This document shows positions 16,448-19,366 of a stretch of 35,621 bases of DNA, piece by piece; positions within the stretch are counted from its first letter, which is position 1; every line of letters begins with the position of its first letter. Both the position numbers and the translations under genes were made by a program. The notes below the pieces were generated by a model that ran no database searches, was not told the origin of the DNA, and was given only the letters and a program-made list of their open reading frames with translations. The stretch is from an uncultured Candidatus Saccharibacteria bacterium (GTDB lineage Bacteria; Patescibacteriota; Saccharimonadia; Saccharimonadales; UBA10212): assembly GCA_964639445.1 (NCBI GenBank), contig CAZXDA010000003.1:1-35621 (forward strand), given 5' to 3'.

Positions 16448-19366
16448 TTATAGCACGAGGCTGACTAACCTGCCAGGCACATAGATTGTTTTCTTAGGTG
16501 TCTTGCCCTTAAGCAAGTTGGCGATTTTTTCATCTTTCATGACTTGTTTAATCGCTTCGTCTTCACTAACATTCGCCGGTATAACTATCTCAGCCCGGAT
16601 TTTGCCGTTGATTTGAACTGCTAAAGTCATGGTTTCTTCCTCAATGAGCGACTCGTCCCAAACAGGCCATTTGCTAACATGCACCGAGCCGGACTGCCCA
16701 AGCTCTTCCCAAATCTCCTCTGTAATATGTGGCGCAAACGGCGCCATAAGCTGTGTTAAAGCTATCAAACTTTCTCCCCATGTACCATTGGCTAGGGCGA
16801 GATTATGTTTTGTTTTGAGTTTGTAAAGTTTATTGACACACTCCATCAACGACGCAATAGCCGTGTTAAATCCAAGCCCTTCCAAGTCCTGACTGACTTT
16901 TTTAATAGTTTTATGGATTATCCGTTTAATTTGAACCTCAAGCTCTGGATTTTTTCCTATTGTCTGTTGCCTATTGCCTATAGCCTGCAAGTATTCCTGC
17001 ATCAATGTCCAAATCCTATCCAAAAATCTGTAAGTGCCGGCGATGCCGCGCGGATTCCAATCAACTCCTTGGTCGTACGGACCTATGAATAATTCATAAA
17101 GCCGCAGCGCGTCAGCGCCATAGCCTTGGCTAATTAGTTCATCCGGCGTCACCACATTGCCGTAGCGCTTACCCATCTTGCGCCCATCCGGTCCACCAAT
17201 CATGCCATGGTTACGCAGAGCTTTAAAAGGTTCATTAGCGTCTATTAAACCGATATCAGCTAAAACCTTTGTCCAAAAGCGGGCATACAGCAGATGCACT
17301 ACAGCATGTTCGGCACCGCCAATATAATTATCCACTGGCATCCAAAAAACGACTTTATCTTTGTCAAAAGGCTCCTTGTTATTCTTTGGATCTGTAAAGC
17401 GCATGAAGTACCAACTGGAATCTACGAAAGTATCAAATGTATCCGTCTCGCGTTTAGCATCGCCGCCGCATTTAGGACATTTAACATTTACAAACTCTGG
17501 TAAATCTTTAAGTGGTGATTGACCAGTTGGTTTAAACTTAATATTTTCTGGCAGTAGCACCGGCAAATCTTTTTCCGGAACGGCTTGGGTGCCACACTCA
17601 TCGCAATAAATTATAGGTATCGGGCAGCCCCAATACCGCTGCCGGCTCACCGTCCAATCATGAAGTTTATACTGTGTTTGCTCCTTGGCTACACCTGCTT
17701 TTGCCAAGTCAGCCACTATTTTTTCTCGCGCCTGAGCCGAATCTAAACCATTGTACTTTCCAGAATTAATCATTTCTCCTTCACCGCTCAAAGCAGTTGT
17801 TTGCCAAAGCTGCTCCCAAATGAGTTTTTGATGATCGGGTGTAAGTCTGTTCATAACTTCGTCTTCATCAACCCAGACTAAGGTATGTATTTTTTGCTCA
17901 GATTCTGGGATTTTACCTTGATTGCCTAAGTTATCCACTTCTGCTAATAAGACATGGCTAACTGCTTTTCGGTTTTCGTTTTTATGAGATGCGCAATATC
18001 TTGCAGCTGTGATCCAATCTAACTTCTTGATAATTCTGGCATCTTCAAGGGCTGCTTCTTCTTTAATTTCTTTGAGCGCAGCTTCTTCTGGGGTCTCACC
18101 TTCTTCAATGCCGCCCATAACCGCGGTAGTGATACCTGCCAGACTCTCATGCCAGTCAAGCAAAGCGAATTTACCCGTAGATTTATCCTGTAAGTGCACT
18201 ATTACGGTCTGTCTCTCTACCTCATTGTATTTCGGTTGTGGTGGATTGGTTGTGTCATCCTTACATGGCATGATTACTTGCCTTATGGGCAGATTGAATT
18301 TTTGGGCGAAGTCATAGTCGCGGGCATCATGCGCTGGGACAGCCATAATTGCTCCGGTGCCGTAGCTCATTAACACATAGTCGGCAATCCAAATCGGAAT
18401 TCTTTCCTTATTGGCCGGATTAATGGCGTAGGCGCCGGTAAAAATGCCTGTTTTGTCCTTTTCGGCCTCTTTGCGGTCGAGCTCAGTCTTATTAGCTGTG
18501 ATTTTAACGTAGTGTCCTACCTCTTTATATTGCGATTTTGTTGCAATTTTGCTCACTAGTGGGTGTTCGGGGGCTAAAACAAGGTACGTCGCCCCAAAAA
18601 TCGTGTCCGGCCGAGTAGTAAACACCTTGATCCTGTGTCCTGTGTCCTGTGTCCTAAATTCAATTTCTGCACCTTTACTTCGGCCTATCCAGTTGCGCTG
18701 CATGGTCTTGATACTTTCCGGCCAGTCCAAATCATCCAAATCGTCAACCAACCTGTCAGCATAATCAGTAATTTTTAAGAACCACTGCTCAATCTCTTTA
18801 TGAGTAACCGGCGTGCCGTCACGCTCACAAACATTTACCCTGTTCTTAGTAATAACCTGCTCATTAGCTAGTACAGTCTGGTCAGTCGGGCACCAGTTTT
18901 GCAAGCTCTTGGCGCGGTAAGCTAAGCCTCTTTCATAAAATTTTAAAAACAACCACTGCGTCCACTTATAGTAGTCGGGGCTTGAAGAATTAATCTCTCT
19001 GGACCAATCGTATGAAAAACCCAGTTGAGCGAGTTGCTTCTTGAACGTCTCAATATTCTTATCTGTAGAGGCTCGAGGCGAAATGTTGTTTTTGATGGCA
19101 AAATTTTCGGCTGGCAACCCAAAAGCGTCCCAGCCCATCGGGTGCAGCACGTTGTGGCCAGTCATTCGGGAGTGGCGCGCCATGGCATCGCCAATGGTGT
19201 AGTTGCGCACATGACCCACGTGCATGGCCACGCCGCTGGGATATGGGAAATACTCCAGAATATATTTTTTTGGCTTAGTCTTCTCTGCTTTCGCTTTATA
19301 AATCCCAGATTCTTCCCAAACTTTCTGCCACTTGGGCTCAATAGCTTTCGGATTGTAACGTCTCAT
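16448..19366 (-). CDS. leuS: Leucyl-tRNA synthetase (972 aa) with an extra internal domain
   Basis: HIGH motif 'HVGHVRNY'. CP1 editing blocks '[12 protein letters not shown]' and '[19 protein letters not shown]'. KMSKS-type motif 'KMGKRYGN'. Confidence 0.97.
   Translation of the reverse strand: [972 protein letters not shown]
16956..16990. repeat. Degenerate heptanucleotide array inside the leuS coding sequence
   Basis: cctattg tctgttg cctattg cctatag cctgcaa. Encodes [13 protein letters not shown] on the coding strand. Confidence 0.55.
17780..18268 (-). other. Nudix-like domain insertion within LeuRS, at the C-terminal edge of the CP1 editing domain
   Basis: About 160 aa lie between '..[11 protein letters not shown]' and '[12 protein letters not shown]..'. 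They contain '[23 protein letters not shown]' (nt 18047-18115), a Nudix box with R->K and G->A substitutions. Confidence 0.6.
18632..18655. repeat. Three perfect copies plus one partial copy of CCTGTGT inside the leuS coding sequence
   Basis: cctgtgt cctgtgt cctgtgt cct. Encodes RTQDTGHR just N-terminal of the TTRPDT block. Confidence 0.8.

Follow-up and report, generated by a model that had tools for sequence, protein, structure and literature searches.

The stretch of DNA analysed here (the window) comprises positions 1 to 35,621, its full length in nucleotides, of contig CAZXDA010000003.1 (NCBI assembly GCA_964639445.1) from an uncultured Candidatus Saccharibacteria bacterium. Its leuS gene (16448..19366, minus strand), a single open reading frame (ORF) without interruption, encodes a bacterial-type leucyl-tRNA synthetase (LeuRS) of 972 amino acids, identified from the ORF itself, the TIGR00396 profile, AlphaFold and Foldseek, that hosts a Nudix domain within its CP1 editing domain. 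CP1 is split into an N-terminal part (residues 224–365; 18272..18697, minus strand) and a C-terminal remainder (residues 530–566; 17669..17779, minus strand). Between them lies an insert of 164 residues (366–529; 17780..18271, minus strand), recognized by PF00293, AlphaFold and Foldseek, in which a linker, a complete Nudix domain and a second linker replace a short CP1 surface loop. An earlier note, made from the sequence without database searches, had described a Nudix-like module in this part of the protein and placed it at 17780–18268; the location was right, but the interval was 3 nucleotides short at one end. The 972-residue ORF and all the sequence blocks quoted in that note were found at the expected places.

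The host enzyme is a bacterial LeuRS by the equivalog hidden Markov model (HMM), the class I signature and the CP1 editing motifs. The full protein scores 1064.6 bits against TIGR00396 (leuS_bact; cut-off 548.4), the match falling in two stretches. The motifs HVGH (residues 49–52), TTRPDT (250–255), AHDARD (345–350) and KMGKR (730–734) are all found. The PF13603 editing-domain match is broken by the insert at profile position 148 of 185. The first part matches at residues 224–374 (profile positions 1–148), aligns to residues 221–363 of Thermus thermophilus LeuRS and keeps intact both TTRPDT and the motif at residues 336–350; the second, which begins GEMINSG, aligns to T. thermophilus residues 379–415. 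An AlphaFold2 model of the full-length protein, built from an input alignment of 116 sequences, has a mean predicted local distance difference test score (pLDDT) of 91.6 and a predicted template-modelling score (pTM) of 0.81, and Foldseek superimposes it onto the LeuRS of T. thermophilus, E. coli and N. gonorrhoeae with template-modelling (TM) scores of 0.75–0.88. With the solved bacterial enzymes (T. thermophilus 1H3N and 2BYT; E. coli 4AQ7 and 4ARC) it shares, besides these TM scores, the full-length TIGR00396 match and the HIGH, KMSKS-like, Thr-rich and GTG...HDxRD editing motifs. None of the editing residues T251, D254, T255, D347 and D350 varies among the 116 aligned LeuRS sequences, and because of this the host looks fully functional. 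Apart from the insert it is intact, the HIGH, KMSKS-like and editing motifs all being kept. The class I KMSKS signature reads KMGKR in this protein (17165–17179, minus strand); the consensus of its relatives is KMSKS, with K730 and M731 nearly invariant and K733 invariant among them.

The edges of the insert are sharp. The preceding block ends ...NLPIRQVI at residue 365 and the following block, GEMINSG..., starts at residue 530. At this site T. thermophilus LeuRS has a loop of about 16 residues (364–380, ERPGEPLPEPLERAYEEPG), which is replaced here by the 164-residue Nudix domain. Close relatives without the insert have 10–19 residues at the site, or 44 in one case (P0076); in P0070 the loop reads DQEEADPDNYYTGE. 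These empty loops mostly end '..Y-x-G-E|G', a sequence also found right after the Nudix domain where the insert is present. The solved LeuRS among the 50 best structural matches listed, with target lengths of 621–876 residues, are all too short to accommodate an insert of this kind. Around the insert the GC content does not shift, and direct or inverted repeats were found only as matches of chance size; with these results and the Nudix fold described below, an intein, a transposon or a repeat-flanked DNA element was ruled out.

The PF00293 NUDIX profile matches the insert alone with 46.3 bits (E = 5e-12) and the whole protein with 43.8 bits, against a gathering cut-off of 21.1. The Nudix box extends from G418 to L440 (18047..18115, minus strand) and follows the pattern GX5EX7REUXEEXGU as G418-x5-E424-x7-K432-E433-I-K-E436-E437-A-A439-L440, so that seven of the nine signature positions are canonical and E424, E433, E436 and E437 are present. 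The two deviations, Arg to Lys at 432 and Gly to Ala at 439, had been read correctly in the earlier note and are conservative changes. Two further segments stand out by conservation. The loop C-terminal to the box (residues 457–467; 17966..17998, minus strand) contains Y457, 17 residues past the box, and the family-specific residues K462, N465 and R466, which are candidate substrate or phosphate contacts. A second segment (residues 488–498; 17873..17905, minus strand) carries the conserved E490 and the near-invariant W498.

The insert is a complete Nudix-fold domain nested in the CP1 surface loop, in agreement with the earlier note. Modelled alone it reaches a pLDDT of 92.7 and a pTM of 0.86, and in the full-length model the pLDDT over the insert is 91–97, with the β/α/β order typical of Nudix proteins. 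According to DSSP of the full-length model, the core of the fold spans residues 382–521 (17804..18223, minus strand) and consists of strands at 382–394, 399–405, 416–419, 444–459, 464–477 and 494–499 and helices at 426–438, 501–507 and 511–521; the fold is of the α/β/α Nudix type. With the insert model as query, Foldseek returned 547 PDB matches at E<=1e-3; the best 50 listed are without exception Nudix enzymes. The top match is 2azw (TM 0.71/0.79), followed by the Ap4A (diadenosine tetraphosphate) hydrolases CT771, NUDT2 and aq_158 (target-normalized TM 0.80). NUDT15, NudB, NudI and MutT1 are further neighbours, and RppH is found at TM 0.6–0.67. Compared with small Nudix hydrolases (1F3Y, 3I7U aq_158, human NUDT2, E. 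coli RppH, flax-rust AvrM14 and E. faecalis 2AZW), the insert has the same fold, with TM up to 0.8. With the small Ap4A, RppH and decapping enzymes it shares the glutamates of REx2EE and an aromatic residue 17 residues after the box (Tyr in the window); it differs from them in the Arg to Lys and Gly to Ala changes, in an identity of only 15–23% and in reaching no subfamily HMM cut-off. Unlike small Nudix proteins it is nested rather than free-standing, and its family has a signature of its own, K462-x2-N465-R466 with W498.

The fusion is not confined to the window. Of its 120 best LeuRS homologues (53–78% identity), an insert of 154–177 residues is present at this site in 98 and missing from 22. 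Those homologues that have a name are mostly from Candidatus Saccharimonadales or Saccharibacteria, and several lie on contigs of about 1 Mb. The subtype found in the window was counted separately by scanning one GTDB genome per species with two peptide patterns specific to it, and occurs in at least 110 species genomes labelled Saccharibacteria or Parcubacteria-group (Kaiser-, Nomura-, Moran-, Kuenen- and Adlerbacteria, Paceibacterota), although such labels can be inexact for metagenome-assembled genomes. Queried alone, the insert brought up just 5 fusion proteins because the word index used lacked sensitivity; the full-length and exhaustive searches gave the true breadth, the exhaustive profile search of 1.84 billion representative proteins yielding 157 clusters at E<=1e-30 and 1129 at E<=1e-10. 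The precomputed Pfam lists of these homologues include PF00293, and the source names give only 'leucine--tRNA ligase', 'leucyl-tRNA synthetase' or 'class I tRNA ligase family protein'. The LeuRS–Nudix fusion is lineage-wide and evolutionarily mobile, and not a one-off. The suspicion voiced in the earlier note, that a pyrophosphohydrolase-type Nudix module sits inside the CP1 editing region, is supported by the PF00293 profile, the predicted fold, the Foldseek matches and more than 100 independent assemblies. The outcomes named there as fatal to it (no Nudix profile match or fold, a LeuRS-specific insertion unrelated to Nudix, a chimeric assembly) were not encountered.

The mobility of the module is seen when the LeuRS body and the insert are compared separately. 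Neighbour-joining analysis of the LeuRS body places the insert-less proteins in two clades nested among insert-bearing ones, and the window's own LeuRS clade contains three Nudix subtypes as well as many empty sites. The leuS gene of the window is itself a mosaic. Its body shares 78–80% identity with insert-less LeuRS and 74–78% with P0069, P0079 and P0087, although the Nudix inserts of these three match that of the window at only about 27%. For its Nudix domain the identity is 72–78% with the domains in P0075, P0081, P0083 and P0088, and yet the bodies of these four match its own at only 62–64%. The switch in identity coincides with the edges of the insert. These sequence comparisons lead to the conclusion that the Nudix module is gained, lost and swapped as a cassette, probably through homologous recombination in the conserved LeuRS flanks. 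The insert-less genomes GCA_036507655.1 and GCA_964585885.1 share the gene order of the window around leuS. Because close relatives with the same gene order are without the domain, it is dispensable for aminoacylation and is no part of the tRNA editing chemistry.

A survey of the architectures among the best 150 representatives of the exhaustive scan, whose profile was built from LeuRS inserts and is biased accordingly, shows that the Nudix family occupies three sites in LeuRS. Site A is the CP1 loop used in the window, site B lies between the N-terminal catalytic half and CP1, and site C between the segment following CP1 and the C-terminal half. Up to three Nudix copies are found in one LeuRS (P0188, P0189, P0199 and, by Pfam, P0104), with tandem copies in P0195, and such multi-site or multi-copy enzymes (also P0190, P0191, P0197 and P0204) reach 1100–1450 residues. 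Every host identified in this set is a LeuRS (about 110) except for one prolyl-tRNA synthetase (ProRS), and 38 hits showed a Nudix domain only. A few of these 38 were inspected: some are complete free-standing proteins of 160–280 residues, and two have a host after all, ProRS in P0313 and a piece of the LeuRS editing domain in P0238. The complete free-standing members of 160–180 residues retain a linker-like N-terminal segment. One of them, P0205, is encoded 2 bp upstream of a LeuRS that itself bears the insert; at locus L048 a family member abuts leuS directly upstream, and the gene string of P0221 ends NUDIX–LeuRS, that LeuRS being without an insert. The free-standing P0237 has no leuS nearby. 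P0313 is a class II ProRS in which a domain of the same Nudix family, scoring 131 bits against the LeuRS-insert profile, lies between the anticodon-binding and C-terminal domains. Four more ProRS–Nudix clusters were found (P0341–P0344), and the nearest named insert-less homologues of the ProRS hosts are mostly labelled Nanoarchaeota or Woesearchaeota (DPANN archaea).

Nudix is not the only hydrolase fold nested in LeuRS of the candidate phyla radiation (CPR). Other such domains were seen in P0202, P0201, P0222, P0155 and P0285, often together with the Nudix insert: HAD_2 between the catalytic half and CP1, Ser_hydrolase (an α/β hydrolase) at site B, at site C or at the N-terminus, and Ham1/ITPase between the catalytic core and the anticodon-binding domain of a 1330-residue protein. 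The proteins P0003, P0004, P0006, P0230 and P0249 are apparently complete at about 276 residues and combine a shortened, degenerate CP1-like domain with a canonical Nudix domain at the same loop; their Thr-rich motif reads IERPEL, and the RD/KD-Y-E motif is kept. At locus L001 the gene for such a protein (6001–6831) has a second Nudix gene on one side and M16 peptidases on the other, with UvrD, Maf and UDG close by. The HAD, Ham1 and Ser_hydrolase domains in LeuRS, the Nudix domain in archaeal ProRS and the mini-CP1 Nudix proteins together suggest that minimal genomes have a general strategy of placing housekeeping hydrolases inside their synthetases.

Conservation was assessed in the 98 LeuRS inserts and in 274 family domains from 257 proteins, the latter covering every insertion site as well as the ProRS inserts and free-standing members. 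In the 98 inserts G418, E433, E436, E437 and W498 are invariant. Across the 274 domains E433 and E437 are kept in 100%, E436 in 98%, G418 and W498 in 99%, K462 in 96%, R385 in 92%, N465 in 88%, and R466 and E490 in 84%. Position 457 is aromatic in 97% (F 52%, Y 45%). Mean identity to the window protein is 47% for the insert, 63% for CP1 and 59% for the rest. The ratio of non-synonymous to synonymous substitution (dN/dS) in the closest gene pairs is 0.059–0.072 within the Nudix part, compared with 0.039 in CP1 and 0.026 in the remainder; only a few pairs gave estimates, since dS is saturated in most. These figures indicate strong purifying selection on the Nudix domain. Because the three metal-binding glutamates of REx2EE are essentially invariant throughout the family, the domain is predicted to be catalytic, and it is probably a working Mg2+-dependent pyrophosphohydrolase. 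The earlier note had left open whether the module is active on a nucleotide by-product, active on an RNA end or catalytically degenerate; the pattern of conservation speaks against the last of these and mildly favours a nucleotide, Ap4A-type activity.

The aminoacyl-tRNA synthetases (aaRS) make Ap4A and Ap4N from the enzyme-bound adenylate, and CPR bacteria are thought to scavenge rather than make nucleotides. In the mechanism proposed here, Leu-AMP held on the enzyme would react with ATP, with another nucleoside triphosphate (NTP) or with RNA bearing a 5′-triphosphate, giving adenine-nucleotide pyrophosphate by-products. The Nudix domain would then clean up for the synthetase in cis, as an accessory activity, with Ap4A, Ap4N, Np4-type caps or damaged ATP analogues as its targets. 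These it would cleave back to mononucleotides, and such clean-up would matter in organisms obliged to scavenge nucleotides. A profile of the insert family searched against the PDB finds the lupin Ap4A hydrolase 1f3y best (E = 1e-11, the alignment being limited to profile positions 19–87), followed by the mRNA-decapping effector AvrM14 (full-length, E = 1.6e-10), 2azw, NudB and the Aquifex Ap4A hydrolase; the Foldseek superpositions on Ap4A hydrolases have TM scores of 0.6–0.8 at 17–21% identity. A correlation is described between ApnA hydrolases and a tyrosine in the loop about 17 residues past the Nudix box (the motif of Dunn et al., 1999, as given in PMC5389931). Y457, 17 residues after L440, fits this, as a weak and non-exclusive marker. 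The physical and genomic coupling to aaRS is recurrent, comprising the three LeuRS sites, the presence of up to three copies, the free members adjoining leuS (P0205, L048) and the nesting in class II ProRS. Because of the Ap4A-type similarity, Y457, the Ap4A side reaction of aaRS and this coupling, a cis-tethered hydrolase of adenylate-derived nucleotide by-products is put forward, as a tentative proposal that may well need revision. A wider form of it, in which dedicated, active Nudix cassettes would have repeatedly colonized the aaRS of ultra-small symbiotic prokaryotes (CPR LeuRS and apparently DPANN ProRS), recombining between alleles and coupling the hydrolysis of adenylate-derived nucleotides (Ap4A, Np4 caps or damaged ATP) to aminoacylation, is possible but doubtful; such coupling would represent an accessory activity of aaRS not recognized before.

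Several observations weigh against the proposal of a clean-up activity in cis. No NCBIfam subfamily model reaches its cut-off for the insert: the RppH models NF001934–NF001938 give at best 24.8 bits against a cut-off of 116, with the match confined to the Nudix box, and the MutT 8-oxo-dGTPase models TIGR00586 and NF008044 give 17.2 bits against 97.9 and 18.0 against 148. Assignment to a characterized Nudix subfamily by this route was dropped, all scores being below cut-off. The similarity behind the substrate assignment is weak and mostly driven by the Nudix box. The insert is not essential to LeuRS, since it is absent from the 22 close homologues noted above, and no Nudix gene of the family type was found within 8 kb of the insert-less leuS in GCA_036507655.1 and GCA_964585885.1. 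The Arg of the box, Lys in the window, is Arg in only 51 of the 98 LeuRS inserts, and in 47 of the 98 Gln takes the place of the first Glu, E424; with this variability some members may have reduced activity. Finally, the HAD_2, Ham1/ITPase and Ser_hydrolase domains, which CPR LeuRS hosts at the same permissive sites, fit just as well with the view that the LeuRS loop is simply a structurally permissive site in which a generic nucleotide house-cleaning enzyme is lodged; in the streamlined genomes of CPR bacteria small hydrolases would come to sit inside an essential protein that is expressed constitutively, for the sake of co-expression and with no mechanistic link to aminoacylation. This explanation, which we consider rather unlikely, is also consistent with the free family members found among sanitation genes (Maf and UDG at L001; TatD and a YfbR-like HD protein at L002), with the repeated absence of the insert in relatives of the same gene order and with the NTP-type enzymes NUDT15, NudI, MutT1 and NudB among the Foldseek neighbours. 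However, the hosts identified among the best 150 hits are LeuRS in all cases but the single ProRS, subject to the bias of the profile, and independent insertion at three LeuRS sites together with Nudix genes abutting leuS points to specific coupling.

The cis clean-up proposal has also to be set against an RNA substrate. An RppH- or AvrM14-like domain could act as a 5′-end pyrophosphohydrolase or decapping activity on RNA held by LeuRS, such as tRNA-Leu precursors or other transcripts with 5′-triphosphate, NAD or Np4 caps. The host protein binds tRNA, RNase III and TrmD are encoded in the same gene string, the profile alignment to AvrM14 is full-length and RppH structures are among the Foldseek matches (E value and TM scores as above). 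The best NCBIfam hints, all below cut-off, are likewise to the RNA pyrophosphohydrolases RppH and YtkD; but the RppH models all remain far under their cut-offs. Mature tRNA bears a 5′-monophosphate after RNase P processing, which counts against such a role, and the ProRS site and the three scattered LeuRS sites share no obvious position near the tRNA 5′ end. An RNA 5′-end activity is improbable. More improbable still is a non-catalytic Nudix fold that, like CFIm25-type Nudix proteins, would have a structural role, bind tRNA or sense nucleotides for regulation. The variable box Arg and E424 would suit such a module, as would Ala in place of Gly439 in 30 of the 98 LeuRS inserts. The high pLDDT in both linkers suggests rigid packing on CP1, and the stand-alone 276-residue proteins keep a degenerate CP1 remnant around their Nudix domain. 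However, E433, E436 and E437 are 98–100% conserved over 274 domains that are otherwise only about 25–47% identical, because of which a metal-dependent active site is expected, and the stand-alone relatives and many of the inserts have a fully canonical box. The chance that a mis-joined contig or assembly chimera created the fusion is negligible, and this reading was ruled out by its recurrence over independent assemblies: the ORF is uninterrupted, there is neither a GC anomaly nor a flanking repeat, and 98 of the 120 nearest homologues, which come from independent sources and in part from contigs of about 1 Mb, have the same architecture, as do the GTDB genomes counted above.

Both parts of the protein belong to known families, and their nested combination was found to be undescribed in the literature searched. 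The full-text literature covered, which leaves out most subscription journals, yielded no account of a Nudix domain in any aaRS, LeuRS included, and the words tRNA and synthetase are absent from a comprehensive review of the Nudix clan (PMC5389931). There are two kinds of precedent for the arrangement. The isoleucyl-tRNA synthetase with a GNAT domain (NCBIfam NF040702) shows that a class Ia aaRS can carry an extra enzymatic domain, in that case for acetylation and not for pyrophosphohydrolysis. The other kind is the editing modules of aaRS, since the INS domain of ProRS and YbaK/ProX, and the editing domain of alanyl-tRNA synthetase and AlaX, are modules that occur both fused and free-standing and hydrolyse aminoacyl-tRNA esters. 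Like the Nudix family they are nested in synthetases and also encoded by separate genes, sometimes adjacent to that of the synthetase.

The aaRS are among the best-studied enzymes, and their idiosyncratic added domains have repeatedly uncovered new biology. Here a second catalytic centre, apparently active by prediction, is placed inside the proofreading domain of an essential synthetase, in hundreds of species of a very large and mostly uncultivated bacterial radiation. If it does process by-products of adenylation or sanitize ATP locally, it would tie translation physically and directly to nucleotide housekeeping or to alarmone turnover. The natural polymorphism of the insert, with its presence or absence, swaps of subtype, one to three copies and three sites, partly in the same gene order, offers ready-made biochemical controls.

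A second, free-standing Nudix gene lies in the same gene string (leuS–nusB–nudix–rnc; 15167..15676, minus strand) and encodes a protein of 169 residues that scores 67.9 bits against PF00293. The heptapeptide IEEGETP, which the earlier note had pointed out as common to this protein and the insert, is indeed present in both, but it reflects only the Nudix-box consensus and not kinship. Against the insert-family profile the free protein scores 49 bits, the level of unrelated Nudix proteins, compared with 150–220 bits for true members, and its orthologues are found in an unchanged gene order both at about 30 Saccharibacteria loci and in the insert-less relatives. With these scores, and with synteny that holds regardless of the insert, the gene was rejected as the source or kin of the insert; by sequence it belongs to a different Nudix family.

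The wider string (14399–21990, minus strand) is Mur ligase–Ddl–LeuRS–NusB–Nudix (169 residues)–RNase III–S16–KhpA-like KH protein–TrmD–hypothetical–SOD. This housekeeping gene string is conserved across Saccharibacteria in the loci compared (L005–L083 and L084–L086), Ddl being variable in the string of the insert-less relatives. The Parcubacteria-type loci L048, L054, L072 and L073 have instead one or two Nudix genes directly upstream of leuS.

Elsewhere in the window, an ORF of 1867 residues (22837–28440, plus strand) has an N-terminal hydrophobic segment, Laminin_G_3 and fibronectin type III domains and many degenerate repeats of the form 'G-x-G-[DNS]-AEVW-x-Y/C-x-G-[ST]-W-[TS]-x-[IV]-GG', and is probably a giant surface protein; genes of the ABC-transporter/FtsX type come after it. 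A mechanically called ORF of 271 residues (10110–10925, plus strand) overlaps a tRNA-Gln(CTG) gene (10153–10227, minus strand) and is probably not a gene. A tRNA-Ala(GGC) gene is found at 30416–30492 (minus strand).

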